This document shows positions 2,234 through 28,339 of a stretch of DNA of 64,000 nt, piece by piece. The first letter of the stretch is position 1. Every line of letters starts with the position of its first letter. Source of the DNA: a virus. Taxonomy: Duplodnaviria; Heunggongvirae; Uroviricota; Caudoviricetes. The translations under genes and the position numbers were made by a program. The notes under the pieces are model-generated. The model was not told where the DNA came from, ran no database searches, and saw only the letters and a program-made list of their open reading frames with translations. The stretch lies in the IMG/VR virus record IMGVR_UViG_3300037454_000478, positions 58,449-122,448 of that record. One strand, written 5' to 3'.

Positions 2234-2812
2234 ATGCAAATAGTACTTGTTGGTGCCCAAAGCACAGGCAAAACCAGCGTAATGAACGCATTACCAAATG
2301 AACTCAAAAAATATGGTATCCGGGAGGTCATACGTAATATGACCGCACAGGATCCGACCGTCCATATCAACCAAAATGGCGATGACTGGTCTCAAAATAG
2401 GTTCTTTTTTGAATACCTTTATCTTTTCGCCAAGTACCCCAAGTATATCTCCGACCGCGGATTATTGGATGTATGTGCATACACCCTTTGGCTTGTCCGT
2501 ACCGGAAAAGTATCACAGGAAACCTACGAGAAACAAATGTATGTTCTTCAGGATTGGATGAAAACCCATCCGGATGTCGTACATATTTATTTCCCCGCAT
2601 CCTATTTTGGTGTCGTTGATGATGGTTACCGGGATGCGAACGAAATGAACCGTCAGGAGGTCGACCAATGCGTCCGCGAGGTCATTGGTGATCTGATTGC
2701 ACGAAAATTATGGAAAGGGTACACAATTAGCGATAGTTCCATCACAGATCGAGTGAAGGAACTCAATGACATTATCAAAACATGTTTCCCCGGTGAAGAA
2801 ATAAAAATGTAA
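2234..2812 (+). CDS. P-loop NTPase, (d)NMP or nucleoside kinase-like
   Basis: Walker A motif VLVGAQSTGKTS. A downstream SDRG..DVCAY segment resembles the DR(Y) / ERS-type motif of dNMP and dN kinases. Confidence 0.6.
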   Translation: MQIVLVGAQSTGKTSVMNALPNELKKYGIREVIRNMTAQDPTVHINQNGDDWSQNRFFFEYLYLFAKYPKYISDRGLLDVCAYTLWLVRTGKVSQETYEKQMYVLQDWMKTHPDVVHIYFPASYFGVVDDGYRDANEMNRQEVDQCVREVIGDLIARKLWKGYTISDSSITDRVKELNDIIKTCFPGEEIKM

Positions 2813-2818
2813 CATATT

Positions 2819-3745
2819 ATGTTTGAAAAAGTTAACCCAAGTCATCCGGATAAAATCGCCGATCGTATAGCCGGTGCTCTTGTCGATAAGGCATATACCA
2901 TCGAGGATAATCCTAAAATTGCTATCGAGGTTCTTATCGGTCATGGGGTTTGTTTGATCCTCATTGAATCAAATATCTCATACAGGAGCCTTGATGAATA
3001 CGTAACGGAAACCGGCGAATACATCCGTGGTGGATTTGTCCGTGATACCGTATATCGAATCATCGGAACCGATGATATTGATTTGAAGACCATTTGTGTT
3101 CCGCAAGACGGATATCTCGCGGAAAACCAAGTCAACGACCTTCATTGTGGTGATAACGGCATTTTCCGTGGCGTTAAAAATACCCCGGAACAAAACGAGC
3201 TTACAAGGATCGCCGGATTCCTGTATGAAGACTGCCCATATGACGGAAAGTATCTCATTGATAATTACGCAGATAAACTTATTATCTGTCAAAGTCATGC
3301 AACCAACGAGTGGGTGGAAAACGAACTGGAAAACCACAACGTCAGCTTTGGTAATTTGATTATCAATCCCCTTGGTGACTGGACTGGCGGGATTGACGTG
3401 GATTCCGGTGCAACGAACCGTAAACTCGGATCCGATATGGGGGATGGGGTTACCGGTGGCGGAATCCATGGTAAGGATCTTTCAAAGACCGATGTATCGG
3501 TAAACATATTTGCTTGGTTATTGGTCAATGACCCGGATTACGTCAATGCCCGTGGAACCTTCCCGGGAAAACACTATGGAGATAAATGTGAATTTGAATG
3601 TGCCATTGGTGATACCAATATTGGTGGCTATCCGTTTGATTTCATTGTTAGTGTTGCTCGCGACTACATTAATGATATAGGTGGATTCGAAAAACTCGCC
3701 GAGTGGGGACTCATAAGACCTGCCATGTCCGCGATGGAAATGTAG
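2819..3745 (+). CDS. metK: S-adenosylmethionine synthetase-like protein (truncated MetK family, 308 aa)
   Basis: By-eye match to E. coli MetK motifs. SHPDKIADRIAGALVDKA matches GHPDKIADQISDAVLDA. HCGDNGIFRG matches GAGDQGLMFG. INPLGDWTGG matches INPTGRFVIGG. GGGIHGKDLSKTDVS matches GGGAFSGKDPSKVDRS. CEFECAIG matches CEIQVSYAIG. Confidence 0.7.
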   Translation: MFEKVNPSHPDKIADRIAGALVDKAYTIEDNPKIAIEVLIGHGVCLILIESNISYRSLDEYVTETGEYIRGGFVRDTVYRIIGTDDIDLKTICVPQDGYLAENQVNDLHCGDNGIFRGVKNTPEQNELTRIAGFLYEDCPYDGKYLIDNYADKLIICQSHATNEWVENELENHNVSFGNLIINPLGDWTGGIDVDSGATNRKLGSDMGDGVTGGGIHGKDLSKTDVSVNIFAWLLVNDPDYVNARGTFPGKHYGDKCEFECAIGDTNIGGYPFDFIVSVARDYINDIGGFEKLAEWGLIRPAMSAMEM

Positions 3746-3797
3746 GTAACAGGTTTCTTGTTTGTCGATTATTTTATTCATAAAGAAACGTACAAAT

Positions 3798-4049
3798 ATG
3801 AAAGACCTTAAAGAACATATGCAATCGGAGCTCAATGAATCGACCAATAAAGGTACCGAAATTGCCAATTACGTCAAAGGTTGGTTGATGGAAGCCAGTG
3901 ATGAAAGATCCGCATGGGACGTCATTATGGGCATCGAAGCCGGTGTAAATATGGCAATCACTGAACGCAATGGCATCAAAACCGATAGTAAATACAAATT
4001 TGCCACATTGGTGATGGAAAAACTATCACGCGCCCTTGGTAATTTGTAA
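3798..4049 (+). CDS. hypothetical protein (83 aa from the ATG; a TTG start at 3762 is also possible)
   Basis: ORF followed by a terminator. Confidence 0.45.
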   Translation: MKDLKEHMQSELNESTNKGTEIANYVKGWLMEASDERSAWDVIMGIEAGVNMAITERNGIKTDSKYKFATLVMEKLSRALGNL

Positions 4050-4081
4050 TAATCCAGTACACAATATTACAAACAACAAAA

Positions 4082-4110
4082 GACCCGGTTAAAACGCCGG
4101 GTCTTTTGTT
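4082..4110 (+). terminator. rho-independent terminator, overlapping a promoter variant
   Basis: GACCCGG-ttaaaacg-CCGGGTC stem followed by TTTTGTTT. Confidence 0.7.
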
Positions 4111-4144
4111 TATATTCATTAAAGTAAACTTAAACATTATACAT

Positions 4145-5014
4145 ATGTCCGAAAAATTCAAAAATTTCACTCGTACTGAAAAGGAAAAATTTGCAGTTGT
4201 TTCGTATTCCGGTGGAATGGATAGCACATGCCTCCTTCTTTATCTCCTTTCCAAGGGGTATATGATCAAAGCTATCTCGTTCGATTACGGACAGAGTCAT
4301 TCGTTGGAATTGAAACGAGCCAAAAAGATTGTGAAATACCTACAAAACATGGGTATGGCAATCAATCATCAAATCATCAACCTACAGGATGCGTTTTCCG
4401 ACAGTCAGTCCTCATTGGTTCTTGGCGAACATGCCCCGGAGGGCCACTACGAAGACGAATCCATGAAGGCAACCGTGGTGGAAAACCGTAACGTCATCTT
4501 CTCCGCCATCACATTCGGTAAGGCATTGGGTTGGGCCAAGATGAATCTCAATAGTTACAAACGTAACCTCCCGGAAGATGAGGCCCGCAAGATTTCCAAA
4601 GTCGTTATCTCCCTTGGTGTCCATGCCGGCGACCACTCCATTTATCCGGACTGTACGGAAGAGTCTGTGGAGATGGCCAAAGAACTTTACCGCATTTCCA
4701 ACTGGGACTCCGATCTCGTGGAATACGATACTCCATTCGTTAATTTCTCAAAGGCCGAGGTGTTGAACGTTGGTATCTCGAGTGCCCTTGAAATTGGCAT
4801 GAGTCATCGTCAAATCACAATGATCTTCAAGAACACGGTTTCCTGCTACAACGCCAACGAAAAAGGTGTTTCCTGCGGTAAGTGTGGAACTTGCACTGAA
4901 CGTCTTGAGGCATTTTGGAATAACAACCTGAATGACCCGGCACCGTATGTCGATGCGAATATGGGTAAGAAACCAAAAAATTGGAATTACATTCCTGTGG
5001 AGGATCAAGGATGA
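4145..5014 (+). CDS. queC: 7-cyano-7-deazaguanine synthase QueC
   Basis: VVSYSGGMDSTCLL (PP-loop motif SGGxDS). FDYGQSH. NRNVIFSAIT. SIYPDC. C-terminal CYNANEKGVSCGKCGTCTERL Zn-Cys cluster, as in QueC. Confidence 0.8.
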   Translation: MSEKFKNFTRTEKEKFAVVSYSGGMDSTCLLLYLLSKGYMIKAISFDYGQSHSLELKRAKKIVKYLQNMGMAINHQIINLQDAFSDSQSSLVLGEHAPEGHYEDESMKATVVENRNVIFSAITFGKALGWAKMNLNSYKRNLPEDEARKISKVVISLGVHAGDHSIYPDCTEESVEMAKELYRISNWDSDLVEYDTPFVNFSKAEVLNVGISSALEIGMSHRQITMIFKNTVSCYNANEKGVSCGKCGTCTERLEAFWNNNLNDPAPYVDANMGKKPKNWNYIPVEDQG

Positions 5015-5137: not shown

Positions 5138-7633
5138 ATGGGAAATAGTGAACTTAAAACAACAATTGAAAAAACCATTAAACCAAATGGTAGAGGTGAG
5201 ATCACAGGAAGTAACCTACAATATGTTTTGAATGAAATGGTGGATGTATTGGGCGCCGGTTATATGTATCTTGGGGATGCTACTCCAATAACATCGCCGG
5301 GTACACCCGATAATAATGTTTGTTATTTAGCCATTGAAGAAGGTAGTTATACTTACTTTGATAATATTGTTGTATCTGAACCATCGATCCTTTACTTTGA
5401 TACACAATGGCATAGTAGAACTCTTAATGGTAATTTTTCAACCGTAATACGCGCGGCTGATATTATAAATAATCTAAATAGTTCTGCAACCGATAAGGTT
5501 TTAAGTGCTGCAATGGGTAAATCACTTGCAGATAGTATAAAAAACCTAATTGATGATTTAAAAAACGGCACCCTTATCCCAAAGAACTCCGAAAATATTG
5601 AATCTTGGGAAGGCAACAATCACCCCGTGGATAATGATTTTAACGATACAATACGTACAACTGCTGGCAACGATCCTATTGATACAGATGCCGGTGGTGT
5701 GCTTTTGGCCATTAAAGCATTAAGTGATTTCAAGTGTACTGGTTTATTGGCAACTGCAGAAAACCAATTACGTTTGAAAAGCGATGGTGGTGGAGCAGTT
5801 GCCGTGGGTACTGGCTGGTATTTTCCTGTGCCAAAATTGACATATGGTGCTTTTGGAACTGCCGATGAAAATAACGGATTAATTCTTGTCGCAAAAGATG
5901 GATCCAATATTCAGAATGCAACTGTTTATTTTAAAGCACTTGCTAATGGTGTACCTACTGGTGTTACTGATGGTGTTGTTGCTTCAAGTCAGAATGTAAC
6001 ATATAATGGTAATACTTATAAGGTCTATACAACAAACGGCCCTGGATATCTCATAGTAAGTGATGTCACGTATGCGGAGACATGCGCTCGTATTGCATGG
6101 GAAGATTGGTATGATAAATTTGTTGCCCCGGATGAACAAGATGATCTTGGTGGTAGTATCGATCTTGCAGCTTTATTTACAGCAGCTCCTAACGGAACAG
6201 GTAAATTTATCGTATGCGGTGGTTCGTCAACACATGCTGAACGCATCAGTGCAAGTCAATGGAGAATTACAGATCCTGTTGGAAGAATTTCTTCACCAGT
6301 ATGGACTGATACTCCGGATGAAGTAGAAGAAGGAGAAACACAAACATATACCCATACACTTAATATTGTTGGTATATCTAATAATGGTATAGCAATAATT
6401 GAAGGCAGCTCCCAATCGTTATCGATTAATGGTACTGTTGTGAGTTATACTGATACTAATGATACTGCTATCAGTGGTGCTGTTCGTTATGAGTTGGCTA
6501 CACCAGCTACTGCTACAGTAAATATCGCCAGTGAATATACACTTAATGATGTTGGTATAGAAATGAAGGAGGGTGCTGAAGGTGAAGCAATTTTTACATG
6601 TCAGTATTCCCAAAATATTGCAGATTCGTTGGCTCTTGGTGCTCCAAAACTTAATATTCTTCGTAGTAACGCAGCTGCAATTAGTCTTGGATATGGACTT
6701 TGTATAACAGGTACGTATGTAAAAGATAAGGTAGTAACTATTCCTGATTTTATGTTACTTCAAAATGGTACAATTAATGTACTTTTCACTACACCTATTA
6801 ATACTGAAAATTCAACACTTAATGTATCATTAACAGGAGCTAAACCATTACGTATTCTTGGACAAAATCTTCCGGCTGGTGTTGTTAAGGCACAATCATA
6901 CGTCACTCTTGCATATGATGGTGAAGCGTGGAATATTATTAATATATTCTGTCCGGATTCATCATTTGACCCTGCAAGCCTTGTCGTTGATATGGGATTA
7001 GCAAGTGGTACAAAATGGGCTGTTCGTGATATTGACCTTACTAAACCAGGAGGTTTCTGTGATACTCCGTTTGTATATGAGAAGACATTCTTTAGCTGGG
7101 GCAATATCGATGGATATAATCCAAAAAATAATTCGTTTGCCAACGTTCACAACTGGGGTTCTGTTAATGGATCTGAACCATGGTATGATGGTCAACCTTA
7201 TGGTAATACTAAAGGCAATACACTTACTGGTAATATTCCTGTAGGTGAGGAATTTGATGCTGCTCGTGCTAATCTTGGTGCTCCATGGAGAATGCCGACA
7301 AATACCGAGTTCGGAGAACTTTTTAACGGATGTATTTATATTGATGCCACAGGTACGGAGATTTCCGTAGGAACTACTGATAAGAGAGTTACTGTTAATG
7401 GTATTGTGGGATTATATCTCCAATCCAAAGCAAATGGTAATAGGTTGTTTTTCGCTTGCTCCGGTCGCGGCAATGGTACGTCTTGGAACGTCCGTGGTTC
7501 GTACGGTTTCTTCTGGTCTGCGTCATTCAACTCTGCCCGTTATGCAAGGGGCTTGTACTTCGACAGTGGAGGCGTTTCTCCGCAGTACTACTACAACCGG
7601 TACTACGGGTTCGCGTTGCGCCCGGTTCAGTAA
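5138..7633 (+). CDS. DGR target protein: receptor-binding / tail fibre-like protein with a C-terminal Fib_succ/C-type-lectin-like variable domain
   Basis: 831-aa ORF. The last ~61 codons (GRGNGTSWNVRGSYGFFWSASFNSARYARGLYFDSGGVSPQYYYNRYYGFALRPVQ) are the VR, matching a TR about 970 bp downstream. Confidence 0.85.
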   Translation: MGNSELKTTIEKTIKPNGRGEITGSNLQYVLNEMVDVLGAGYMYLGDATPITSPGTPDNNVCYLAIEEGSYTYFDNIVVSEPSILYFDTQWHSRTLNGNFSTVIRAADIINNLNSSATDKVLSAAMGKSLADSIKNLIDDLKNGTLIPKNSENIESWEGNNHPVDNDFNDTIRTTAGNDPIDTDAGGVLLAIKALSDFKCTGLLATAENQLRLKSDGGGAVAVGTGWYFPVPKLTYGAFGTADENNGLILVAKDGSNIQNATVYFKALANGVPTGVTDGVVASSQNVTYNGNTYKVYTTNGPGYLIVSDVTYAETCARIAWEDWYDKFVAPDEQDDLGGSIDLAALFTAAPNGTGKFIVCGGSSTHAERISASQWRITDPVGRISSPVWTDTPDEVEEGETQTYTHTLNIVGISNNGIAIIEGSSQSLSINGTVVSYTDTNDTAISGAVRYELATPATATVNIASEYTLNDVGIEMKEGAEGEAIFTCQYSQNIADSLALGAPKLNILRSNAAAISLGYGLCITGTYVKDKVVTIPDFMLLQNGTINVLFTTPINTENSTLNVSLTGAKPLRILGQNLPAGVVKAQSYVTLAYDGEAWNIINIFCPDSSFDPASLVVDMGLASGTKWAVRDIDLTKPGGFCDTPFVYEKTFFSWGNIDGYNPKNNSFANVHNWGSVNGSEPWYDGQPYGNTKGNTLTGNIPVGEEFDAARANLGAPWRMPTNTEFGELFNGCIYIDATGTEISVGTTDKRVTVNGIVGLYLQSKANGNRLFFACSGRGNGTSWNVRGSYGFFWSASFNSARYARGLYFDSGGVSPQYYYNRYYGFALRPVQ
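7447..7630 (+). repeat. DGR variable repeat (VR)
   Basis: 184-nt near-identity with 8419-8602. 21 of 22 mismatches fall where the TR has A, mostly TAC/TTC here against AAC in the TR. Confidence 0.9.
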
Positions 7634-7673
7634 TATCGTTTTACCAACGGATAAAATAAAAGGAGTGTACCAC

Positions 7674-7691
7674 AGATGCGCCCCAGCGCAT
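7674..7691 (+). other. GC-rich hairpin downstream of the VR (candidate DGR homing-enhancer stem-loop)
   Basis: GATGCGC-ccca-GCGCATC, a 7-bp stem with a 4-nt loop, 44 nt after the VR end. Confidence 0.5.
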
Positions 7692-7735
7692 CCCATGGTG
7701 CACCCCTTAATAAATTTCAACACAGGTATTAACAT

Positions 7736-8284
7736 ATGACAATAACGGAAATAAGAAAAATAGAAGAAGACCGTAAAGATACGCTTGATGTGGTACATCT
7801 TATTAAAGAAGGTAGTTTCTATCACGCTAACGATTGGAGTGCTTGGTTAATGTCGACATACCCTATAGGGGAGGCAGTTCACAAACCCATGGTTGTTACA
7901 GTAAAAAAGTTAAAGGATGATTATCTTCATGCTTTTGTTGGTTTCCCCACAACATCATTAGCTAAATATGTACCTAATGATGGTAGTGTTGAATTTCGCC
8001 CTATCAGCGATAATCAAATAGATGTTGTTCTTAATATAGATTTTGATCAATTAACTACGGATCAAATAAGACATATGGTGGATGAATGGAAAGAAAACTT
8101 ACCAATACGTGAAAATAAGAAGCAACATCGTGAAGATAAGGATATCATTAATGAAGCAACGCGCATTACCCGTATTAGCGATGTGGTTGTTAAAATCATC
8201 TCATTACCCATGGAGGATATATCACCTAAACAAGCGTATGATATTTTAAGGGACTTACGTAAACAAATTTCCGCTTTATTTTAA
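7736..8284 (+). CDS. putative DGR accessory protein (Avd-like by position only)
   Basis: The only ORF between the VR and the TR, which is the canonical avd position. At 182 aa it is longer than typical Avd, and I saw no motif. Confidence 0.4.
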   Translation: MTITEIRKIEEDRKDTLDVVHLIKEGSFYHANDWSAWLMSTYPIGEAVHKPMVVTVKKLKDDYLHAFVGFPTTSLAKYVPNDGSVEFRPISDNQIDVVLNIDFDQLTTDQIRHMVDEWKENLPIRENKKQHREDKDIINEATRITRISDVVVKIISLPMEDISPKQAYDILRDLRKQISALF

Positions 8285-8418
8285 TAAAATAGGATGACGG
8301 TTCAGAACGATATTCATAGGTCATGCGTCTTATCTTTTTAAAAGATGGGAAAAAGTAAAGACACCACTTGGCTTCCACATGGATTCTTTGAGGCGTTCGT
8401 AAAAGGATATGACCGATA

Positions 8419-8602
8419 GTTTTTCGCTTGCTCCGGTAACGGCAATGGAACGTCTTGGAACAACCGTGGTTCGAACGGTAACTACTGGTCTGCGACATTC
8501 AACTCTGCCCGTAATGCAAGGAACTTGAACTTCAACAGTGGAGGCGTTAATCCGCAGAACAACAACAACCGGTACAACGGGTTCGCGGTGCGCCCGGTTC
8601 AG
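8419..8602 (+). repeat. DGR template repeat (TR)
   Basis: Adenine-rich copy of the VR (AAC codons where the VR has TAC, TTC, GGC or CGC). Intergenic, immediately upstream of the reverse transcriptase. Confidence 0.9.
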
Positions 8603-8638
8603 CATACACTTCTAACAGTCATCCTTTTTTCTTTATAA

Positions 8639-9826
8639 ATGGTTTTAACACGGCAGCAATTACTTCTTGATCTTTATCAAGCATATTATGATGCAAAAAA
8701 ACATAAATCCAAACGTTCATATGTAAGGAAATGGGAATCCAACCTAAAACAGAACATGGATGATTTATGTGATGATCTTTATACACGTTGTTATAAACCA
8801 TTACCATCAAAATGTTTTATTGTAGATTATCCAAAGAAAAGGGAAATATTTGCTGCTGCATTTAGAGATAGAATTGTACATCATCTTTACTATAACTATA
8901 CTAACAAGTTATATCAGCACACGTTCATCCAAGACTCGTATTCCTGTATCAAAGGGCGTGGTACACATTATGGCATAAATCGTATTAATACATTTTGCCG
9001 TAAAGAAAGTCTTAACTGGCAACGGCCATGTTATGCTATGCATCTTGATATTAGAGGATATTTTATGCATATTGTCCGTAAAAGACTTCTTGAAATATCC
9101 ATCAATTCATTACATAAGATGGCAACCCATCGCATCAATAATCATTCCTCAAAAACCTGGAGTGATATTCTTGATATGGATTTCATTGAATGGTTAACTG
9201 AATTGATCATAATGATAGATCCAAAAGAAAATTGCATTATTTGTGGAGAACTTGAGGATTGGGATGATTTGGATCCGGCTAAATCATTATTATGGCTTGA
9301 AGATGGTCTTGGGTTACCGATTGGTAATCTTACTTCACAACTATTTTCCAATATTTATCTTAATATACTCGATCAATTTATGAAACGAGTATTAAAGTGT
9401 CATTATTATGGTCGTTATGTTGATGATGCTATAGTGGTAAGTTGTGATAAGGAATGGTTATTATCATTAGTGCCAAAGATAAAAAAGTTCCTTTGGGATG
9501 AGCTTCAACTCGAATTGCATCTTGGTAAACTTGAAATATCGGAAGTACATAAAGGTGTTGAAATACTTGGTGTGTATATAAAACCTTATCGTATATATGT
9601 TTCAAATCATTCGTTAAGAAAAATGGAAAAGAAAATATCCGAATTTGATTATTCAGATTATTCATCAGTATTAAGAAGTGTTAATAGTTATCTTGGAATA
9701 CTCCAGCATGTATCTTCATATAATTTACGCCGTAAACTATTTATGATTCAACCAATAATGAAAATATGTAATTTTAATACGGATATAACAAAAGCGATTG
9801 ATATAAGAAAATCATTGCGGTTTTAA
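8639..9826 (+). CDS. DGR-type reverse transcriptase
   Basis: FRDRIVHH, SYSCIKGRGTH, LPIGNLTSQLFSNIYLN (DGR-specific motif) and YGRYVDDAIVV (YxDD). Confidence 0.85.
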   Translation: MVLTRQQLLLDLYQAYYDAKKHKSKRSYVRKWESNLKQNMDDLCDDLYTRCYKPLPSKCFIVDYPKKREIFAAAFRDRIVHHLYYNYTNKLYQHTFIQDSYSCIKGRGTHYGINRINTFCRKESLNWQRPCYAMHLDIRGYFMHIVRKRLLEISINSLHKMATHRINNHSSKTWSDILDMDFIEWLTELIIMIDPKENCIICGELEDWDDLDPAKSLLWLEDGLGLPIGNLTSQLFSNIYLNILDQFMKRVLKCHYYGRYVDDAIVVSCDKEWLLSLVPKIKKFLWDELQLELHLGKLEISEVHKGVEILGVYIKPYRIYVSNHSLRKMEKKISEFDYSDYSSVLRSVNSYLGILQHVSSYNLRRKLFMIQPIMKICNFNTDITKAIDIRKSLRF

Positions 9827-9835
9827 ATCCCGTTT

Positions 9836-9862
9836 AAAGGCTCCCCCGTGGAGCTTTTATTA
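9836..9862 (+). terminator. rho-independent terminator
   Basis: AAAGGCTCC-cccgt-GGAGCTTTT stem followed by a T-rich run. Confidence 0.6.
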
Positions 9863-9887
9863 TTTATATACATGAAATAAATTCACA

Positions 9888-10379
9888 ATGTCCATGAAAC
9901 CATTAACTGATTATATCACAGAAGCAATGGCTCCTCAAACCGGTATTGGTGCATTTGATTGGCAAATTGGGGGTAATCACGTGATTATCAACAATATCAC
10001 ACAACAACTAAAAGCCCATGGATTTACACCAACAACCGGCAATAATCGCGTAAAATATAAGGAGTACAAGGTTACACATAATGGCTCCTGCCTTACAATC
10101 GGGCTCAAAGGTATACGTAAAGGAGATTCCAAGGAACACACCCATAAGGTATTCATTCGTCAGGATAGCGATGGTATGATTGATATCATTACCAAGCATT
10201 ATGACCCGGATGGCTCCGGTACATGGTTTACCGGTTGGTTAATCAAACACGGGGATATTGAAATTGGATACTATAAGTCCAACGATCTCCCAAGAAAAGG
10301 AACGATTGAGGATACCGCGGAAAATTCCGTTATGATTTTGAATAAAATCCTTACAAGAAGCAAACGTTTCGGAAAATAA
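9888..10379 (+). CDS. hypothetical protein (163 aa)
   Basis: ORF on the + strand. Confidence 0.6.
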   Translation: MSMKPLTDYITEAMAPQTGIGAFDWQIGGNHVIINNITQQLKAHGFTPTTGNNRVKYKEYKVTHNGSCLTIGLKGIRKGDSKEHTHKVFIRQDSDGMIDIITKHYDPDGSGTWFTGWLIKHGDIEIGYYKSNDLPRKGTIEDTAENSVMILNKILTRSKRFGK

Positions 10380-10390
10380 TTTATCACAAT

Positions 10391-11086
10391 ATGGAACAAG
10401 TGAAAGAGATACGTTATTACCTTGCAAATAAGAAGTCATGGAGTGATGTGACAATCGCTGTTACTTATAAAGGGCTCCCAAAAGAAGGTCAAGTCATCAA
10501 TGTAGGTAAAATCAAGATGAATGTGAAATCAATTGCTGATGGTACTTCAAATGGCCGTTCAGTTATAAAAGTATTTCTTGAAAACGAAAATGACCGTACG
10601 CCATTGGACGAGGCCATTGAAATGCTCGATAATCCCACATTCATCACAATTGATGAGGATGTCAACGAGGCAAAAGGTAAAGCAGCCGTTAAAGTCGGTG
10701 GTAGCATGGATAACCGTACATATACATCCGTAAGACCATTTAGTGATACTGCAGATGCCATCCGTGCATTTGGCCCCGGTTCATTTGGCACCCTTGGTGG
10801 ATATGTTAGATCCGCACTTTCCGGTCTTGGTGTTGGTTACGGAGTACAGGTAACTGATTTCGGAGAGGCTGTCACGGTTACCATCACATATTCGAACTCG
10901 CGTACCGGGCGTATTTCCGGCCAAAGCTTTGTAATCGTGATGCACCATGGTAATAGTCACAAATACCTATATACGGTATACGCACATTCCGCCCGCTGGC
11001 GTGACTGTGATGATTACAACCAAGCCATTGGTTTTATTCGCTCCAAGGCATCCGCACTTGCCGGTCAAACAAGTGGTGGAGTTTAA
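10391..11086 (+). CDS. hypothetical protein (231 aa)
   Basis: ORF; the antisense ORF is shorter. Confidence 0.6.
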   Translation: MEQVKEIRYYLANKKSWSDVTIAVTYKGLPKEGQVINVGKIKMNVKSIADGTSNGRSVIKVFLENENDRTPLDEAIEMLDNPTFITIDEDVNEAKGKAAVKVGGSMDNRTYTSVRPFSDTADAIRAFGPGSFGTLGGYVRSALSGLGVGYGVQVTDFGEAVTVTITYSNSRTGRISGQSFVIVMHHGNSHKYLYTVYAHSARWRDCDDYNQAIGFIRSKASALAGQTSGGV

Positions 11087-11103
11087 AAAAACATAGATAT
11101 ACT

Positions 11104-12813
11104 GTGTCCTGCCCTATAAAAAGACTTATAACGATCACAGTCCCTGTGAAGTATCAACCTGTCAATATATTTGACGAAAACGGGATTGATGTCACGGCAT
11201 CGTGCCAATTTTCTTGGTCATCCGATTCCGTATGTTGGACCAATTTTGTATCATATGAGCAGTACACACGGATGGCTTCCAATATCGAAACCGATTATTT
11301 TCTCCGTATATTGATTACCACCGGTTTCTCAAAACTTGCATTGGATAATACGATAGTGGATTGCTATACGATATGCTTGTACAATGAGAACCCGTACCTC
11401 ATGGATCTTTGCGTAAATCAAACAGTTGACTTTTACGCCAACCTTGATTGTGCGCTTCAAATGTATCAGCAGATGTCGGATCTGATTTGTTGTACCATCG
11501 GTATCCCATGTTATTACTTCCGCGTTATGCCGGATCAAAGTACAGCGGATTATACATTTAAGGAGTATCTGCTTCATAACGTGGTGGATATGAAACATCT
11601 TAAACTCGTATGTCAGGATGGATCAATGCCATCATCAAAACCTCAAATGACCGAGTTTGATTTTGATTGGGAAACCGATTGGGAGGTTGAGATGTCCAAA
11701 TCAGCATTTGCAAAGGCATTTGGTGACACTGCCTTTCCAAAACAGCGCGATCTTATATGGATTCCACTGATGGGACGTATGTGGGAGGTCAATTCCGCAT
11801 ATGATGAGAAGAACGAGGCATTTATGTGGCGTCCGGTAACATGGAAGCTCGGATTGGTCAAGTGGAACGATAAAACCAACGTAAACCAAGGGGATTTCGC
11901 AGACATTATTGATTCTTGGGCGATCAATCGGATGGAGAATTTTATGGATCGTGAACGTGAGGAACAAGAACACCAATCCGGAGTCAATCAAATTGATGCA
12001 CCATTATTCAGTGGTGATAATTTGTATATGACGTTTTTGGAGGATGCAATTAGAACCGGCGTTACTGTTTCCGAGAAAAATAACGTATCCAAGACCCAAC
12101 TCAATCATAATGCGGTGATCGTCACCCGGAACATGTACCGTTTTGCAAACGGTGATTCCATCGTGAAATATAACAAGACCACATGTGGTGATCATGGCAC
12201 TCTTATGTTCCTCATAGATACCTCAAACAACCAATATATCAATAATTGTTTTGAAAACGATGCGATGGTTGAATACAAAAAGGTTCTTTTCAAGGCCGGC
12301 CACATTGAGGTACTATTAAGAATAACAAGGACTTACGATAGGAGATTTGGATGGTCATATAAATACTACGTTTCATTTAATGGTATGGAATGCGAATTAC
12401 ATGACCCCAATAATCCTCCGGGAGTATCCGTATATACTGGTATTTATGAAGTTCAATGCCGCTGGAATAGAAGTAATTTCACCACGGAGATGAATGTCAT
12501 ACCTTATATCCAAACCATACCGGCCGGCACGCCTCCGTATTCAGTCCGCCCGGAAATGCATATTTTGGACTTTACCAATCCGGTATGTACAATGACCTCA
12601 AATTATAACAATGATTTCATTCAGGAACAACCGGTAAGCATCATTCTATCTCCAGCTCCGGTCGGTATCTCCAACGTCAAGCTATTTGATGCGGCACTTT
12701 CCGATAATGAAATGGCAAAGGAATCCATCAAATACACCACAACAGATCCAAGGTGTGTTATAAATGATGTAGCCCGTCCGCTTGTCGAAGATACCGGTTA
12801 TAATGTTAGATAA
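11104..12813 (+). CDS. hypothetical protein (569 aa; GTG start, an ATG alternative exists at 11272)
   Basis: Long ORF; Cys-rich N-terminal half. Confidence 0.6.
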   Translation: MSCPIKRLITITVPVKYQPVNIFDENGIDVTASCQFSWSSDSVCWTNFVSYEQYTRMASNIETDYFLRILITTGFSKLALDNTIVDCYTICLYNENPYLMDLCVNQTVDFYANLDCALQMYQQMSDLICCTIGIPCYYFRVMPDQSTADYTFKEYLLHNVVDMKHLKLVCQDGSMPSSKPQMTEFDFDWETDWEVEMSKSAFAKAFGDTAFPKQRDLIWIPLMGRMWEVNSAYDEKNEAFMWRPVTWKLGLVKWNDKTNVNQGDFADIIDSWAINRMENFMDREREEQEHQSGVNQIDAPLFSGDNLYMTFLEDAIRTGVTVSEKNNVSKTQLNHNAVIVTRNMYRFANGDSIVKYNKTTCGDHGTLMFLIDTSNNQYINNCFENDAMVEYKKVLFKAGHIEVLLRITRTYDRRFGWSYKYYVSFNGMECELHDPNNPPGVSVYTGIYEVQCRWNRSNFTTEMNVIPYIQTIPAGTPPYSVRPEMHILDFTNPVCTMTSNYNNDFIQEQPVSIILSPAPVGISNVKLFDAALSDNEMAKESIKYTTTDPRCVINDVARPLVEDTGYNVR

Positions 12814-17359: not shown

Positions 17360-18613
17360 ATGAATAACGCAAATGAAATGATTTTTCCGGGAAACCTCAA
17401 GGTTTTCGCACAGACTGTCGAGCAGGAGGTATACGGCCAGCTATATCGTTTGTTGAGCTTGGATGCCTTCCGTGACGCAAAGATCCGTATCATGCCGGAT
17501 ACCCATGCCGGTATGGGTTGCGTGATTGGATTCACTGCCGCCTTGGGCGATAAGGTTGTCCCTAACCTCGTTGGGGTGGACATCGGATGCGGTATGTTCG
17601 TCCAAAACCTTGGACAAATAGACATTGATCTTCCGGCACTGGATAAATTTATCCGTGAGCATATTCCGTCCGGAAGCGGAGTCAATGAAATACAAGGAAC
17701 CCGCGTTGAATTTCCGGAGCTGAAAGATATGCGGATGTACAAGAGCCTCCGTAATATCGATCACTTACAGTCTTCGATTGGTTCCTTGGGTGGCGGAAAC
17801 CACTTCATTGAACTTGACCGCGACTCGAATGGTAACGTATACCTTGTTATCCATACGGGAAGCCGTAACCTTGGACAGCAGGTGTGTAAGCACTATCAAA
17901 AACTCGCTGTGGATCAATGCAATAAGCACTCTGCGGATATCAAGCGTGAGATCAATTCCGCCATCGAGCAGCTCAAGGCGGAAGGCCGTCAAAAGGAATC
18001 ATCGCGAGTTATCTCGGAAATCAAGGCAAAATACGGACGTATTGATAAGGTTCCGGCGGATTTGTGTTACCTTACCGGTGAACTCCGTGACGACTACCTC
18101 CACGATATGAAGATTTGTCAGGAGTTTGCCCGCCGTAACCGCGAGGAAATCGCCCACCGTATCTTCCGTCACATCAAATGGAGTGGCAAGTGGGGATTCC
18201 ACACCATCCACAATTACATCGATTTCACGGATAAGATCATCCGTAAGGGTGCTATCCGTTGTAATCAGGGTGAGATGGTCATTATCCCGTTGAATATGCG
18301 TGACGGATCGATCCTTGCCATTGGTAAAGGTAACGAGGATTGGAACTTTTCCGGCCCTCATGGCGCTGGTCGTTTGATGTCCCGTTCCGCTGCCAAGGAG
18401 TCAATCTCAATGAAAGACTTTAGGGCTTCGATGGAAGGTATCTACACCACATCGGTCAACAAAAACACCTTGGACGAATCCCCGATGGCATACAAAAACG
18501 CCAACGAAATCGTGGAGGCCATTCGAGATACTGTTGATGTAATTGAGGTGATCAAGCCCATTTACAACTTCAAGGCCAGTGAGACTGATGAGGATTATAA
18601 CCGCCAAAAATAA
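17360..18613 (+). CDS. rtcB: RtcB-family RNA ligase (joins 3'-phosphate to 5'-OH)
   Basis: MPDTHAGMGC, GGGNHFIEL and HNYI motifs, with RtcB-typical length. Confidence 0.85.
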   Translation: MNNANEMIFPGNLKVFAQTVEQEVYGQLYRLLSLDAFRDAKIRIMPDTHAGMGCVIGFTAALGDKVVPNLVGVDIGCGMFVQNLGQIDIDLPALDKFIREHIPSGSGVNEIQGTRVEFPELKDMRMYKSLRNIDHLQSSIGSLGGGNHFIELDRDSNGNVYLVIHTGSRNLGQQVCKHYQKLAVDQCNKHSADIKREINSAIEQLKAEGRQKESSRVISEIKAKYGRIDKVPADLCYLTGELRDDYLHDMKICQEFARRNREEIAHRIFRHIKWSGKWGFHTIHNYIDFTDKIIRKGAIRCNQGEMVIIPLNMRDGSILAIGKGNEDWNFSGPHGAGRLMSRSAAKESISMKDFRASMEGIYTTSVNKNTLDESPMAYKNANEIVEAIRDTVDVIEVIKPIYNFKASETDEDYNRQK

Positions 18614-20358: not shown

Positions 20359-21056
20359 ATCCAAAACGTTTACTTAACTACGAGTTTCTCCGGGATAACA
20401 TAATGTGTATGGATGAACTCGATAAACAAACATCACAGATACTCAAGTCCATGCTGTTGCTTGCTTGCTACGACCTTTCATATATCAAGTTTGTTGACGC
20501 CCGTTTCTTTGTGGATACCATGGGTGGTGACAAGGTAACGATTATCCTTGGCCTAATAAGCAGAAAGCATTCAACACAAATACATTACGAGGTATCCGCG
20601 GATAGCCATTGCCACAACGCCAGCATCAAACGTAAGTTTGGTGTTTTCGAACTCAACAAAGATAATGGCACATGGAACCCGGTAGGAGCGTGTGAGTTGG
20701 GTGAGGATGCAGGTGAATTATTATCGTTGATAATCAAGAACGTACCGAGAGAGTTCATCATTGAAGAGGGGCCGGAAGATTTACCGGTTACCACGGATCC
20801 CATCCCCCCCGGCAAGTTACCAGTGATTCAACCGGATCAACTTCTTCAATTAAAGAAGGATATCGATGATTCCGTTGATGGTAAACTCGAACATGCAGCG
20901 GAAAGGATTCAGGCTTGGATCACTGATGAGTTCTGTCCGGTACTCCAGGAGTGGCTCGAAAAGGCTCTTGGCCGCAAATTGGATGTCAAAATAATGGACA
21001 AAACAAATGACGAGCACAAGGGGGATCCGGATAAAAACAAAAGCAACTTAATATAA
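20355..21056 (+). CDS. hypothetical protein (233 aa)
   Basis: ORF. Confidence 0.55.
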   Translation: MNPKRLLNYEFLRDNIMCMDELDKQTSQILKSMLLLACYDLSYIKFVDARFFVDTMGGDKVTIILGLISRKHSTQIHYEVSADSHCHNASIKRKFGVFELNKDNGTWNPVGACELGEDAGELLSLIIKNVPREFIIEEGPEDLPVTTDPIPPGKLPVIQPDQLLQLKKDIDDSVDGKLEHAAERIQAWITDEFCPVLQEWLEKALGRKLDVKIMDKTNDEHKGDPDKNKSNLI

Positions 21057-21574
21057 TGGAAGTCGGTGGCAATAACAAAACATACCCGGGGAGAAACCTA
21101 TCAAATTTCTTCCCACACCCCTTTATATTCCGCGGATTTGAGATTTCGTCCATGGAAGGTTTTCTGCAAGGATTGAAATTCAAATCGCCGGAAATGCAGG
21201 CAGAAGTATTCAAGTTGGTTGGTCTTGCTGCAAAGAAAAAAGGTGCCCCTAAAAATTGGCAACAAACCCAAACGTTATGGTTCCAGGGTAACCCAATACC
21301 TCGCAGATCCGAAACTTACCAATCCCTTCTTGACGAGGTATATGATGCCATGTACGAACAAAATGGTGCATTCCGTAAGGCATTGGCAGATGTTCCCGTA
21401 GACGCGGTGTTGACCCATTCCATCGGACGCACAAACGAATCGGAAACTGTGCTAACTATTCGGGAGTTTATCAGCCGGTTGAATAAATTACGCCGCGGAG
21501 AAAAGCTGTGCAAAAATCCGGTTATTTTTCCAAAACAGGAAGATATTGAAAATCAATTGTTTACACAAGGATAA
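21056..21574 (+). CDS. hypothetical protein (172 aa)
   Basis: ORF. Confidence 0.55.
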   Translation: MEVGGNNKTYPGRNLSNFFPHPFIFRGFEISSMEGFLQGLKFKSPEMQAEVFKLVGLAAKKKGAPKNWQQTQTLWFQGNPIPRRSETYQSLLDEVYDAMYEQNGAFRKALADVPVDAVLTHSIGRTNESETVLTIREFISRLNKLRRGEKLCKNPVIFPKQEDIENQLFTQG

Positions 21575-24212: not shown

Positions 24213-26525
24213 ATGCCCGATAATCTACATAAGTCCGAGGTGGTAAATGAACTCGTCACCGGATATATGGCGAGTATACGTAATCGCGATATCATCGTTA
24301 TAAAACGTAGTGGTACCAAAGCTAACTACGACCTCGATAAAATCCGTAGGGCAATCCGCCAGTGTTTCAAACGATGCCATGTTCGCTACCGCGTGGAATT
24401 GCTCGAAAAAATTGATAATGAAATCAAACATGCAATTGCCGTAAAGATGGTGGATTATTCCACACATCCACCGTATCCGGAAGAGGTGCGTACCATTAAG
24501 GTGGAGGACATTCAGGATATCGTTGAAAAAACCTTGATGGATAGCCAGCCGGAATGCGCAAAGGAGTACATTCTTTACCGCAACCATCGTGAACAAGTCC
24601 GTTCGTGGGTGGATTCAAAGGAGGATTTCATCCGCAAATATAAAGAAGCAGCCAACACGGCTAACGCAACGATTGATGATAACTCCAACGTAACCAACAA
24701 AAACATCGGTATCCTTAATACGGAAATCCACAAGGAGGACAACATTCAGATCTCCCGCCGTATGGTGGTTCGTAAACTCCGTAAGATATTCCCGGATTTC
24801 GATGCAAAACAGTATGAACGTGATCTCGCCGACCATATCATATACAAGCACGATGAAAGTTCGTTTGCAGGCGCTGTGGCACCTTATTGTGTTGCACTAA
24901 CCATGTATCCGTTCCTTGATGGTGGTATCAAAGGTATCGGTGGTCTTTCAGCAAAACCAAAGAATCTTGATTCGTATTGTGGTATGTTGGTCAATATGAT
25001 CTTCGCTATCTCCGCCCAGTTTGCCGGAGCAGTTGCCTGCCCGGAGGCTCTTTTGTACTTCGATTATTTCGCCCGTAAGGAGTGGGGTGATGATTATTAC
25101 CTCCACCCGGACGACATCGTCAATCCTCGTTCGAAACATCCACGAACAATCCGTGAACAAATCCATCAGCATTTCCAACAGGTGATTTATTCAATCAATC
25201 AACCGGCTGCGGCTCGTGGACTTCAAAGCGCCTTTGTCAATTTCTCATATTATGATAAGGCGTTTTATGACGGGATGTTTGGAAACTTCGCATTTCCGGA
25301 TTTCACGCAACCAATTTGGGAGAGTTTTAACTGGTTACAAAAGGATTTCATGCAATGGTTCAATAACGAACGCAAACGCTGTGTCCTTACGTTCCCGGTG
25401 GAATCATTTGCCATGGTGTATCAGGATCACAAGTTCCTCGACCCGGAAAGCGCCGATTTTGTGGCGGAAGAATATGCCCGTGGACACTCCTTCTTTACGT
25501 ATATTTCCGACACGGTGGACAGCCTTTCCAGTTGCTGCCGTTTGAAAAACAAACTCCAAACCAAGGAGTTCAACTTCACTAACGGTAATATGGGTCTTCA
25601 AACCGGATCCAAGTCGGTTATCACGATTAACCTCAACCGTATTATTCAGGATTGGGCCCGCGTAAATGGCCATATCATTATCCCATCCGGATTCTCCAAG
25701 GAGGCACAGGATAGTTTCATCAAATACCTTGGTGATATCCTTGACCGTATCTATAAATACCACACTGCGTATAACGAGCTTCTTTGGGATATGAAGGACG
25801 CCCATCTCCTCCCGGTATACGATGCCGGTTTCATCGATCTCAACAAACAATACCTCACGATTGGTATCAATGGTCTCAACCAAGCAGCCGAGTTTATCGG
25901 ATATACCTGTAATGACAACGAACAATACAAACATTTCTGTCAATTGATCTTTGGTGCCATCGCTGCCAAAAACAAGGATGCCGGTAAGGAGAAGTTCAAT
26001 GGTCATACACTTACGTTCAACACGGAGCAGGTACCGGCTGAATCCTTGGCCATTAAGAACTATAACTGGGATAAGGAGGATGACTATTGGGTTCCCGAAG
26101 ACACCAACCTTTATGCAAGTTACATTTTCAAACCAAATGATCCGACCACGGATATCTTTGAGAAACTCCGTCTCCATGGCCGTGAATACATCGGGGATTA
26201 TCTTGATGGTGGATCTGCCGCACATATCAACCTCGAGGAACACCTCACCAAGGATCAATACAAGAATATCATCAAGTATGCCGCCGAACAAGGTACCAAT
26301 TACTTCACCTTCAATATCCCAATGTCGGAGTGTTGTGATTGTGGACATATTGTAAACGGCCCGATTGAGGAGTGTCCGGAATGTCATAGCCATAACATTA
26401 AGTACTGGACTCGTATTATCGGATACCTCACTGCGGTGAAATCGTGGTCTGCTGGCCGTCAGGAGGAGTTCAAACACCGTATTTTCCACACTATGGAAAA
26501 GGATAAATTCCGTACGATGGAATAA
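24213..26525 (+). CDS. nrdD: anaerobic ribonucleoside-triphosphate reductase NrdD (class III ribonucleotide reductase)
   Basis: N-terminal ATP-cone (VIKRSGTKANYDLDKIRRAI). C-terminal Zn ribbon CCDCGH...CPECH. Glycyl-radical motif RIIGYLTAV near the C-terminus. Length 770 aa. Confidence 0.85.
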   Translation: MPDNLHKSEVVNELVTGYMASIRNRDIIVIKRSGTKANYDLDKIRRAIRQCFKRCHVRYRVELLEKIDNEIKHAIAVKMVDYSTHPPYPEEVRTIKVEDIQDIVEKTLMDSQPECAKEYILYRNHREQVRSWVDSKEDFIRKYKEAANTANATIDDNSNVTNKNIGILNTEIHKEDNIQISRRMVVRKLRKIFPDFDAKQYERDLADHIIYKHDESSFAGAVAPYCVALTMYPFLDGGIKGIGGLSAKPKNLDSYCGMLVNMIFAISAQFAGAVACPEALLYFDYFARKEWGDDYYLHPDDIVNPRSKHPRTIREQIHQHFQQVIYSINQPAAARGLQSAFVNFSYYDKAFYDGMFGNFAFPDFTQPIWESFNWLQKDFMQWFNNERKRCVLTFPVESFAMVYQDHKFLDPESADFVAEEYARGHSFFTYISDTVDSLSSCCRLKNKLQTKEFNFTNGNMGLQTGSKSVITINLNRIIQDWARVNGHIIIPSGFSKEAQDSFIKYLGDILDRIYKYHTAYNELLWDMKDAHLLPVYDAGFIDLNKQYLTIGINGLNQAAEFIGYTCNDNEQYKHFCQLIFGAIAAKNKDAGKEKFNGHTLTFNTEQVPAESLAIKNYNWDKEDDYWVPEDTNLYASYIFKPNDPTTDIFEKLRLHGREYIGDYLDGGSAAHINLEEHLTKDQYKNIIKYAAEQGTNYFTFNIPMSECCDCGHIVNGPIEECPECHSHNIKYWTRIIGYLTAVKSWSAGRQEEFKHRIFHTMEKDKFRTME

Positions 26526-28249: not shown

Positions 28250-28290
28250 CCTTTTTATTTCGTAAATCCTTTCCTTTTTGAAGCCCATTT

Positions 28291-28322
28291 GTTAAGTTAC
28301 AGATGGGTTTCTTTATATATAA
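28291..28322 (+). promoter_or_regulatory. conserved phage promoter
   Basis: gttaag at 28291-96 and tttatatata at 28313-22; ATG at 28340. Confidence 0.6.
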
Positions 28323-28339
28323 CCATAAAATTTATACAT

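Follow-up and report, generated by a model that had tools for sequence, protein, structure and literature searches.

A diversity-generating retroelement with a MutS-domain-I-like accessory protein and a structured RNA leader, probably from a large T4-like phage of Bacteroidales

Diversity-generating retroelements (DGRs) are well known in phages, and tens of thousands of them have been catalogued. The accessory protein Avd is encoded in about 70% of the catalogued DGRs and is essential in the DGR of Bordetella phage BPP-1. To our knowledge, everything known of the structure and biochemistry of DGR reverse transcription stems from this Avd-dependent system, and we know of no survey recording Avd-less DGR lineages that explains how they work. 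The BPP-1 cassette has the order mtd-avd-TR-brt, where Avd is a basic four-helix-bundle protein, with a gap of 0 nt before the template repeat (TR) and a spacer of ~140-144 nt after it. In the BPP-1 DGR RNA (Handa et al.), the stretch upstream of TR and that downstream of it form the 'cPRT Stop' duplex (mean 13 bp), and the spacer 3' of TR contains an Avd-binding stem-loop, a primer strand and an RT-binding stem (bioRxiv 10.1101/2023.10.23.563531). Of 278 Avd-DGRs, 207 have an Avd-binding stem-loop just 3' of TR (bioRxiv 10.1101/2023.10.23.563531).

Among GenBank phages, the reverse transcriptase (RT) closest to the one described here, at 33-34% identity, belongs to the DGR of Bacteroides phage Bacuni F1/F2. 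Both cassettes are from Bacteroidales phages, have a lectin target of the DUF1566/Fib_succ type and share the order target, accessory, TR, RT. However, the accessory slot of Bacuni holds a bAvd-family protein (Pfam, 4.7e-36), to which the MSL-family HMM has no match, and Bacuni has two targets, whereas the window analysed here, meaning the whole 64-kb stretch of viral DNA, has one. Small stand-alone relatives of MutS domain I, which recognises mismatches, are similar to the accessory gene reported below and are found in DGR cassettes as MSL genes (Wu et al. 2018; Msl of Bacteroides ICE DGRs, Macadangdang et al. 2024 preprint); in a comparison by published description only, MSL genes always accompany avd (16/16 in Wu et al. 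2018) and have a mean pI of ~7.2, whereas no avd was found among the window ORFs tested and the pI of the family is 5.4. The CH1 accessories of Avd-less Lineage 3a DGRs (Wu et al. 2018) are likewise described as small, acidic and present only in Avd-less DGRs of Bacteroides and relatives; again compared by description only, they have no recognised motif, a length of 160-169 aa and a pI of 4.7, against 175-207 aa and 5.4 here. Lineage 3a DGRs are possibly phage-associated, with single targets and few non-A substitutions (Wu et al. 2018). If CH1 and the accessory protein are the same family, this type of cassette has already been catalogued, while the MutS-like fold and the RNA leader remain new.

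The locus is very probably an active DGR in a large T4-like phage (myovirus) of rumen or gut Bacteroidales, another host phage than BPP-1 and a cassette that differs from the BPP-1 model. Analysis revealed an invariant TR, a near-identical variable repeat (VR) ending a fibre-like gene, a bRT-type RT after TR, and natural alleles with adenine-limited differences (Table 1). The DGR as such is a well-known kind of phage system; its variant part is the Avd-less lineage with a 5' leader. There are two linked departures from the BPP-1 model, a MutS-like accessory protein without Avd and a structured RNA 5' of TR.

Table 1. Features of the DGR cassette; positions are those of the 64-kb window
Feature	Position	Strand	Remarks
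Target gene, 831 aa	5138..7633	+	Fibre-like protein; VR at C-terminus
Variable repeat (VR)	7447..7630	+	Alignment, repeat finder, four natural alleles
GC-rich invariant VR 3' tail, IMH-like	7607..7630	+	TR counterpart 8579-8602
Nested hairpin, 30 nt 3' of VR	7660..7708	+	Inner stem GATGCGC/GCGCATC, loop CCCA; DNA fold z = -3.35
Accessory gene, 182 aa, pI 5.5	7736..8284	+	Between VR and TR; slot of Avd in BPP-1 and Bacuni phages
Structured RNA leader, ~130 nt, 5' of TR	8291..8418	+	RNAalifold, covariation
Leader helices	P1 5' strand 8291-8307; P2 8319-8325/8408-8414; P3 8328-8336/8342-8350; P4 within 8365-8392	+	
Template repeat (TR), intergenic	8419..8602	+	Alignment; invariant in four contigs of the phage
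P1 3' strand	8610..8626	+	Pairs with 8291-8307; one long-range stem encloses leader and TR
DGR reverse transcriptase, 395 aa	8639..9826	+	Pfam RVT_1; PHROG 1423, 5e-84
Terminator-like hairpin with T-run	9835..9869	+	Terminator-like site found only after RT

The repeat finder returned one direct repeat, 184 nt long with 88% identity, and in the alignment the similarity of VR and TR vanishes directly beyond its bounds. A preliminary description of this DNA had reported 22 mismatches, 21 of them at TR adenines, and tabulation of the pairwise alignment gave exactly these numbers, the TR-A mismatches comprising 14 A>T, 5 A>G and 2 A>C. Since TR contains 46 adenines in 184 nt, the hypergeometric probability that 21 or more of the 22 mismatches fall on A is 6e-14. 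The substitutions at TR-A sites span positions 7466 to 7605 of VR, which makes up the final 61 codons of the target gene, the stop codon lying directly 3' of the repeat. Codon positions 1 and 2 hold 42 of the 46 TR adenines, in codons including 14 AAC and 3 AAT. No TR codon is able to mutate to a stop, and ~10^24.7 protein variants can be encoded. A second VR was not found in the window, even with A positions masked.

The 3' end of the repeat is nearly free of adenines. The last 26 nt of VR have a GC content of 73%, and after the last substituted A (repeat position 159) a single A remains at position 183, which is the same in all four natural alleles. The lone mismatch outside adenines, a G in TR and a T in VR at repeat position 170 (window position 7616), was originally taken for the difference between IMH and IMH*. 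This interpretation had to be abandoned, as the T is private to one allele; the three other alleles have G, as in TR, and the IMH-like tails of VR and TR are identical in three of the four. In some DGRs the discrimination of IMH and IMH* relies on sequence beyond the repeat (PMC5758913), and here, too, VR and TR would have to be told apart by sequence outside the repeat.

Four metagenome contigs from different samples, compared as assembled consensus sequences, carry this locus with flanks that are 99.9-100% identical over 2300 nt on the upstream and 788 nt on the downstream side. Their TRs are identical and their VRs are all different, with 19-31 differing sites. Across the four alleles 39 VR positions vary and 37 of these are TR adenines, in agreement with the earlier expectation that population variation would be confined to such sites. 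All cassette ORFs are intact, and none of the four VR alleles contains a stop codon. The DGR is very probably active in nature, because its VR alleles differ nearly only at TR adenines inside otherwise identical DNA.

The N-terminus of the target protein resembles a virion anchor and has matches among fibre-position proteins of Bacteroidota phages; a phage fibre repeat occupies aa 109-139, and a C-type-lectin-fold domain, in which VR lies, extends over aa ~590-831. The suggestion of a CLec/Fib_succ tip was upheld for the fold but not for the family profiles. Structure prediction models the C-terminal ~240 aa as a C-type-lectin fold, whereas the scores of Pfam Fib_succ_major (PF09603; 16.8 bits, gathering threshold 33.9), Pfam Lcl_C (PF07603, DUF1566; 14.5 bits, threshold 34.9) and NCBIfam TIGR02145 (13.7, threshold 41.65) on the target are all below threshold. 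The model thus supports a C-type-lectin tip on the grounds of its fold. Several homologues, 57-79% identical to the target, bear Fib_succ/Lcl_C families in precomputed annotation, which suggests that the target domain is a diverged relative. Homology and the position of the gene lead us to infer that the protein may bind receptors and that its diversification may switch tropism. The central claim of the preliminary description, a complete DGR that diversifies a lectin-fold tip at the C-terminus of a fibre-like protein, is borne out by the repeat pair, the RT homology and the predicted fold.

The best PDB match of the RT is 8ub7_A (3e-28), a 328-aa chain named 'Reverse transcriptase'. Its length suggests that this chain is BPP-1 bRT, since the product of brt (1756-2742) also has 328 aa. 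RTs of group II introns and of the retron type match at 1e-5 to 1e-6. That the alignment with 8ub7_A starts at residue 8 speaks for the long RT ORF. The DGR motif, [I/L]GxxxSQ, is present as IGNLTSQLF, compared with IGSLTSQLF in 8ub7_A (pattern IGxLTSQLF), and the active-site motif is YVDD. The motif that had been quoted as DGR-specific for ORF 8639-9826 indeed aligns with GIPIGSLTSQLFANVY of the Bordetella phage RT. Judged from these similarities, the RT adjoining TR appears to belong to the bRT-type, or DGR, clade; compared with BPP-1, it is 395 aa long with an insertion of ~55 aa.

The canonical order of target with VR, small ORF, TR and RT, noted from the outset, is present in this cassette and, with adenine-specific mismatches, in 20 of the 21 related loci with enough flanking sequence, but the small ORF does not encode Avd, so that the cassette as a whole is not canonical. 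The identity with Avd was rejected, as Pfam bAvd finds no match in the ORF and its product is MutS-domain-I-like. The bAvd and 23S_rRNA_IVP families are absent from the cassette, the neighbour genes and 45 small window ORFs, while BPP-1 Avd and Bacuni Avd, used as positive controls for bAvd, were detected at 1e-36; in eight related contigs, the genes called up to 6 kb away likewise include no member of an Avd family. The absence of Avd does not bar the cassette from the DGRs, because not every DGR has it. In place of the basic Avd of BPP-1, there is an acidic protein whose N-terminal ~120 aa are MutS-domain-I-like and whose C-terminus is helical. It represents an unannotated family of about 600 clusters with this predicted fold, ~185 aa long (175-207 aa) and with a pI of 5.36 +/- 0.22. 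Of the Phe-X-Glu mismatch-contact motif of MutS, the protein retains GxF (G26, F28), with His at the Glu position (Arg in the family consensus), so that the motif itself is absent, and its alignment to GDFYE is without statistical significance. Apart from this motif, the protein has the character of a small, MSL-like homologue of MutS domain I.

The second departure from the BPP-1 model is the arrangement of the RNA around TR. RNAalifold predicted 35 pairs in the leader, 25 of them with compensatory changes. In the named structure 94.6% of cells are paired, as against 39-50% when it is slid, and 27 of 36 pairs show double changes; none of 500 shuffles reached the observed values. Three unpaired motifs are conserved, GGGAAAAA, AAAGA and UCGURNAAGG. 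A sequence pattern derived from the leader matches only these cassettes in IMG/VR, and the leader itself has no match in Rfam. The long-range stem P1 (helix 1) has 13 pairs, 9 of them with compensatory changes, with 90% of cells paired, and as a pairing across TR it corresponds to the 'cPRT Stop' duplex of BPP-1. The structured 3' spacer of BPP-1, in contrast, has no counterpart: the first 200 nt 3' of TR contain no conserved structure or covariation, and the structured domain lies upstream of TR instead. Here a 134-nt leader and a 36-nt trailer flank TR, and related loci have 134-194 nt 5' of TR and 29-50 nt from TR to the RT start codon. The GC-rich inverted repeat 3' of the IMH in BPP-1 corresponds to the three-tiered hairpin after VR, whose design is shared by all 21 related loci (-26 to -51 kcal/mol); its A/C-rich internal loops are kept while the sequence covaries, and all nine pairs of the middle stem show compensatory changes. 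No T-run follows this hairpin, and it is not called as a terminator. The covariation-supported leader 5' of TR, the 13-bp stem around TR and the conserved three-tier hairpin after VR are new.

Other explanations of the locus were considered. The VR differences might have arisen by ordinary recombination, or by selection, among alleles of the tail fibre, the RT cassette being a dead relic; fibre tips are often hypervariable in phage populations, and only assembled consensus alleles were compared. The restriction of variation to TR adenines beside an invariant TR, the near-identical flanks, the intact ORFs and the stop-free VRs make this highly improbable. It is just as improbable that the 182-aa ORF is a DGR-unrelated phage gene that merely happens to lie between VR and TR. 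Some DGR cassettes hold nested unrelated ORFs (PMC5758913), but homologues of this protein down to 45% identity are found at this very place in 20 of the 21 loci whose flanks are long enough, despite differing neighbours, and in IMG/VR the protein and the leader motif co-occur exclusively.

A canonical Avd-dependent DGR, with Avd encoded outside the window and the 182-aa ORF providing just an auxiliary factor of the MSL type, as in the DGRs of Legionella and of Bacteroides ICEs, would agree with the observation that every MSL-containing DGR of a 2018 survey also had avd (PMC5758913), and the window is part of a probably much larger genome, with relatives on contigs of 108-246 kb. We nevertheless regard this as quite unlikely, given the negative searches of the window ORFs and related contigs, the location of the MSL-like gene in the exact Avd slot of Bacuni and BPP-1, the short interval after TR, which leaves no room for an Avd-binding stem-loop, and the existence of known DGR lineages without Avd (PMC5758913). 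The hairpin and leader, for their part, could be ordinary expression signals, namely a terminator or mRNA stabiliser and an RT 5' UTR or attenuator, with no role in retrohoming. Their positions, after the target stop codon and before RT, would suit such functions, and high-confidence inverted repeats follow the IMH in only a minority of DGRs (PMC5758913). This, too, seems unlikely, as a standard terminator-like site follows RT whereas the hairpin has no T-run, its three-tier design persists under covariation, and P1 pairs across the entire TR, without obvious use in translation control, matching the upstream-downstream duplex needed for BPP-1 cDNA synthesis.

In an active DGR that departs from the BPP-1 model as described, and by analogy with BPP-1, accessory gene, leader, TR and RT would share one transcript, RT would copy TR to cDNA with misincorporation opposite adenines, and the cDNA would replace VR, with the GC-rich 3' tail and the hairpin downstream as guides. 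Up to 25 codons could be rewritten on the ligand-binding face of the C-type-lectin-fold tip, so that the phage population may carry many receptor specificities. The leader may serve as an RT-binding scaffold and the P1 stem as the equivalent of the 'cPRT Stop' duplex, while the MutS-like protein might be an RT cofactor in place of Avd or might shield the heavily mismatched cDNA:VR heteroduplex from host mismatch repair; host MutS is reported to restrict retrohoming in Bacteroides (bioRxiv 10.1101/2024.11.15.621889). It is also conceivable, although we put this forward only tentatively, that these cassettes are an Avd-independent DGR branch where the MutS-domain-I-like protein and the 5' leader together replaced Avd and the 3' spacer, the protein coupling reverse transcription to heteroduplex handling, for example by blocking host MutS. 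Such a branch would offer a DGR that is natural and compact, has two proteins and wires its RNA scaffold differently.

A cassette without Avd that is very probably active in nature and has a defined partner family and an RNA scaffold on the opposite side of TR makes it testable which RNA and protein elements adenine-mutagenic cDNA synthesis truly requires, and whether DGRs bring their own answer to host mismatch repair. A compact system of RT, MSL and leader would be of interest for DGR engineering in directed evolution. With regard to phage biology, the locus adds a large T4-like Bacteroidales phage with a fibre tip encoding ~10^24 variants. The transcript of the cassette probably ends at the hairpin with a T-run downstream of RT.

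The region contains a single long direct repeat of 184 nt (88% identity), recovered by repeat search. One copy, the variable repeat (VR), forms the final 61 codons of the 831-aa target gene, and the other, the template repeat (TR), is intergenic; on alignment of both copies the similarity ends abruptly on either side. The repeats differ at 22 positions, 21 of which are adenines in the TR (14 A>T, 5 A>G and 2 A>C), the exception being a TR-G to VR-T change at 7616. Given 46 adenines in the TR, the probability of such a bias is ~6e-14, and the coordinates, counts and direction in the preliminary description of this retroelement were all correct. Of the TR adenines, 42 of 46 occupy codon positions 1 or 2 (14 AAC and 3 AAT codons), none of the TR codons is convertible to a stop, and ~10^24.7 proteins are encodable. 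No second VR was found in the 64-kb window, including by a search with the adenine positions masked.

Contigs that encode exactly the accessory protein of the window came from four further data sets (Logan SRR12681651 and JGI 3300037455, 3300028832 and 3300031998). Relative to the window, the 2300 nt upstream of the VR and the 788-nt VR-TR interval are 99.9-100% identical and the TR is identical in these four contigs; one VR is the same as that of the window, and the remaining three are each distinct. Between any two of the distinct VRs there are 19-31 differences, and of the 39 sites that vary, 37 are adenines in the TR. The population-level variation at such sites anticipated earlier is thus found among assembled alleles, evidence of activity in nature. 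The substituted adenines lie at repeat positions 20-159, and the final 26 nt of the repeat (73% GC) are constant. The change at 7616 had been ascribed to a difference between IMH and IMH*, the VR and TR 3'-end sequences expected to differ; since G occupies this site in the TR and in the remaining three alleles, it is instead a stray non-A substitution private to the window allele.

The reverse transcriptase (RT) matches RVT_1 and PHROG 1423 (5e-84). Its best solved relative is 8ub7_A, a 328-aa chain named 'Reverse transcriptase' (E 3e-28; IGNLTSQLFSNIY aligned with IGSLTSQLFANVY), taken as the Bordetella phage enzyme because brt of phage BPP-1, the model diversity-generating retroelement (DGR), likewise encodes 328 aa. 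The long ORF is supported by the alignment, which starts from residue 8, and an insertion of ~55 aa relative to bRT (aa 167-220) separates the aligned blocks 8-166 and 221-363. Assignment to group II intron, retron or defence (DRT/Abi) RTs was rejected: group II intron and retron-type RTs match at 1e-5 to 1e-6, and the scores of all these classes are far under the bRT match and below their own cut-offs. Among GenBank phage RTs none exceeds 35% identity, the closest being those of Bacteroides uniformis phages F2 and Bacuni.

Coordinates of the cassette and of selected genes in the window
Feature	Position	Remark
Target gene	5138-7633	831 aa
VR	7447-7630	184 nt
Post-VR hairpin	7660-7708	z -3.35
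Accessory (MSL-like) gene	7736-8284	182 aa
P1	8291-8307 with 8610-8626	leader-trailer stem spanning whole TR, 13 bp
P2	8319-8325 with 8408-8414	closes leader domain
P3	8328-8336 with 8342-8350	hairpin
P4	within 8365-8392	hairpin
TR	8419-8602	184 nt
RT	8639-9826	395 aa
Terminator-like hairpin with T-run	9835-9869	directly after RT
RtcB RNA ligase	17360-18613	
gp30.3 family protein	21056-21571	
NrdD	24213-26525	
CCA-adding-type nucleotidyltransferase	28289-29869	
Baseplate wedge protein	48862-50550	(-) strand
gp43-type DNA polymerase	52665-55625	25% identical to enzymes of Flavobacterium and Tenacibaculum phages
dCTP-deaminase-like protein	55671-56225	
Lar-like restriction-alleviation protein	57497-57739	

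No Avd, the usual DGR helper protein, was detectable in the window with Pfam bAvd and positive controls. This search replaced phmmer with the BPP-1 and Bacuni Avds, which found no match in all window ORFs and 53 loci and was dropped as insensitive, because these two Avds fail to detect each other. The accessory gene instead encodes a protein resembling MutS domain I (MSL-like). Its link to MutS is drawn from fold searches and many sub-threshold Pfam hits, since hhalign of the accessory family against the E. coli MutS N-terminus aligned GDFYE with GSFYH without reaching significance. Two profiles of the family, A2 and A5, returned nothing significant from PDB sequences, tblastn found no match to the protein among phages or plasmids, and cluster look-ups attached no names or organisms to family members. 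The annotations of two isolated or assembled Bacteroides phages, Bacteroides phage Versailles and CrAssphage LMMB, place no accessory gene of Avd or MSL size in the interval from fibre gene to RT, where Versailles has just two tiny ORFs (45 and 36 aa); Bacteroidales phage DGRs therefore occur with Avd, with an MSL-like protein, or with neither.

Related contigs, with accessory homologues of 45-96% identity, were collected in three ways: by looking up exact proteins, scanning species-representative genomes and searching IMG/VR. The genome scan gave only three hits among 185,579 species representatives, all rumen MAG contigs (of Prevotella, Bacteroidales and Bacteroidaceae). Where enough flank was available, 20 of 21 loci share one arrangement: the upstream gene ends in a VR, the TR lies 134-194 nt past the accessory stop, and the RT follows the TR by 29-50 nt. 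The TR/VR mismatches in related loci fall overwhelmingly at TR adenines (e.g. 17/17, 19/19, 23/23 and 21/21), and the cassette is a lineage rather than a one-off. The targets vary, most being of 280-390 aa and located downstream of giant 2800-3100-aa proteins, as against 831 aa in the window; shuffling has thus joined the lectin tip to different N-termini.

Some of these loci have individual peculiarities. In locus L053 (1887-2078 on the plus strand and 9571-11479 on the minus strand) the accessory-TR-RT core is the same and the VR-bearing gene lies ~8.7 kb off on the opposite strand, so adjacency of the target is not obligatory in the lineage. In locus L011 (same contig as L015), the TR and VR at 5676-5864 and 6706-6894 are 100% identical over 189 nt, and the 'TR' has 38 A, against 42 A for its sister contig L010; this reflects either a collapse of the two repeats during assembly or overwriting of the TR by a VR allele. 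In locus L031 (2624-2809 and 3639-3824), just 23 of 41 TR/VR mismatches are at TR adenines, and the cassette may be decaying or relaxed in fidelity.

The RNA around the TR was analysed using an alignment of 20 loci, in which the stretch between accessory stop codon and TR was fused to the 3' end of the TR plus the trailer. RNAalifold predicted 35 pairs in this alignment, 25 of them with compensatory changes. For the named structure of four helices (P1-P4), 94.6% of cells are paired, versus 39-50% with the partners slid, double changes occur in 27 of 36 pairs, and the covariation score is 0.59 versus 0.10-0.17; none of 500 shuffles reached the observed values. A-rich unpaired motifs between the helices are also conserved. 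As a negative control, the same analysis of the 200 nt downstream of the TR revealed neither structure nor covariation, which shows that a BPP-1-like spacer is missing, and no Sp-like structure was found on searching the RT gene within its 5' end. Among 2.9 million IMG/VR contigs, a 19-base leader pattern matched 16 times; 14 of the matches are cassettes of this lineage and two represent one chance match in high-GC coding sequence. Rfam contains no family for the leader or for the post-VR hairpin. The heptamer GGTTCAG, found at the end of the VR (7624-7630) and of the TR (8596-8602), recurs in the P1 5' strand (8299-8305), so that the trailer strand has two candidate partners, the leader and, for part of its length, the 3' end of the TR, a hint of alternative RNA conformers.

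A three-tier hairpin of very high stability (-26 to -51 kcal/mol), its internal loops rich in A and C, follows the VR in every locus. All nine pairs of the middle stem show compensatory changes; the formal covariation counts refer to this stem only, as the inner stem, misaligned by MAFFT, rests on single-sequence folds. The hairpin has no T-run and was not called as a terminator; a terminator-like hairpin is located instead after the RT. The presence of this site and the lack of one from the target gene to the RT suggest a single transcript for the whole cassette. The post-VR hairpin fits the GC-rich inverted repeat of BPP-1, which promotes retrohoming in that phage (PMC5758913).

In BPP-1, avd is immediately followed by the TR, and 144 nt of spacer lie between the TR and brt. 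This spacer holds an Avd-binding stem-loop, the primer strand, an RT-binding stem and a strand of the 'cPRT Stop' duplex, which pairs upstream of the TR with a reported mean of 13 bp (10.1101/2023.10.23.563531). P1 resembles this upstream-downstream duplex, whereas the rest of the RNA scaffold in the window is on the opposite side of the template, 5' of the TR rather than 3'. What is observed here comprises the parts with their order and conservation, natural variation specific to adenines, structures in both RNA and DNA, and the lack of a detectable Avd. To these a course of events can be fitted on the pattern of BPP-1, in which the accessory gene, leader, TR and RT would be co-transcribed, cDNA synthesis would be adenine-mutagenic, and the VR would be replaced under the guidance of the GC-rich tail and the hairpin. 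We propose that the leader may act as the RT-binding scaffold and P1 as an analogue of the stop duplex. The MSL-like protein may substitute for Avd, or may shield the mismatched heteroduplex against host MutS, which cuts retrohoming 5-10-fold in Bacteroides (bioRxiv 10.1101/2024.11.15.621889).

Phage DGRs that act on the lectin-fold tip of a fibre are already known, and a 2018 study noted both Avd-less lineages and an unexplained acidic accessory gene, CH1, of DGRs related to Bacteroides (PMC5758913). The MutS-like nature of the sole accessory, the family size, and the conserved leader RNA 5' of the TR together with the long-range stem appear to be new, CH1 having been compared by its description. 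The finding is of moderate interest in general, and of greater interest for studies of DGR mechanism or engineering.

The DNA of the window is that of a T4-type phage, and also encodes NrdG and UDP-glucose dehydrogenase. A near-identity DNA search with the cassette gave no match in GenBank phages, and the phage has no close relative among them. Directly upstream of the target gene (2234-5014) are genes for an AAA_28 ATPase, a protein with a SAM synthetase match limited to the N-domain, and QueC, which may constitute a 7-deazaguanine (queuosine-precursor) DNA-modification module. No tRNA genes were found across the whole 64 kb despite the presence of RtcB and the CCA-adding-type enzyme; these two may serve in tRNA repair against host anticodon nucleases.
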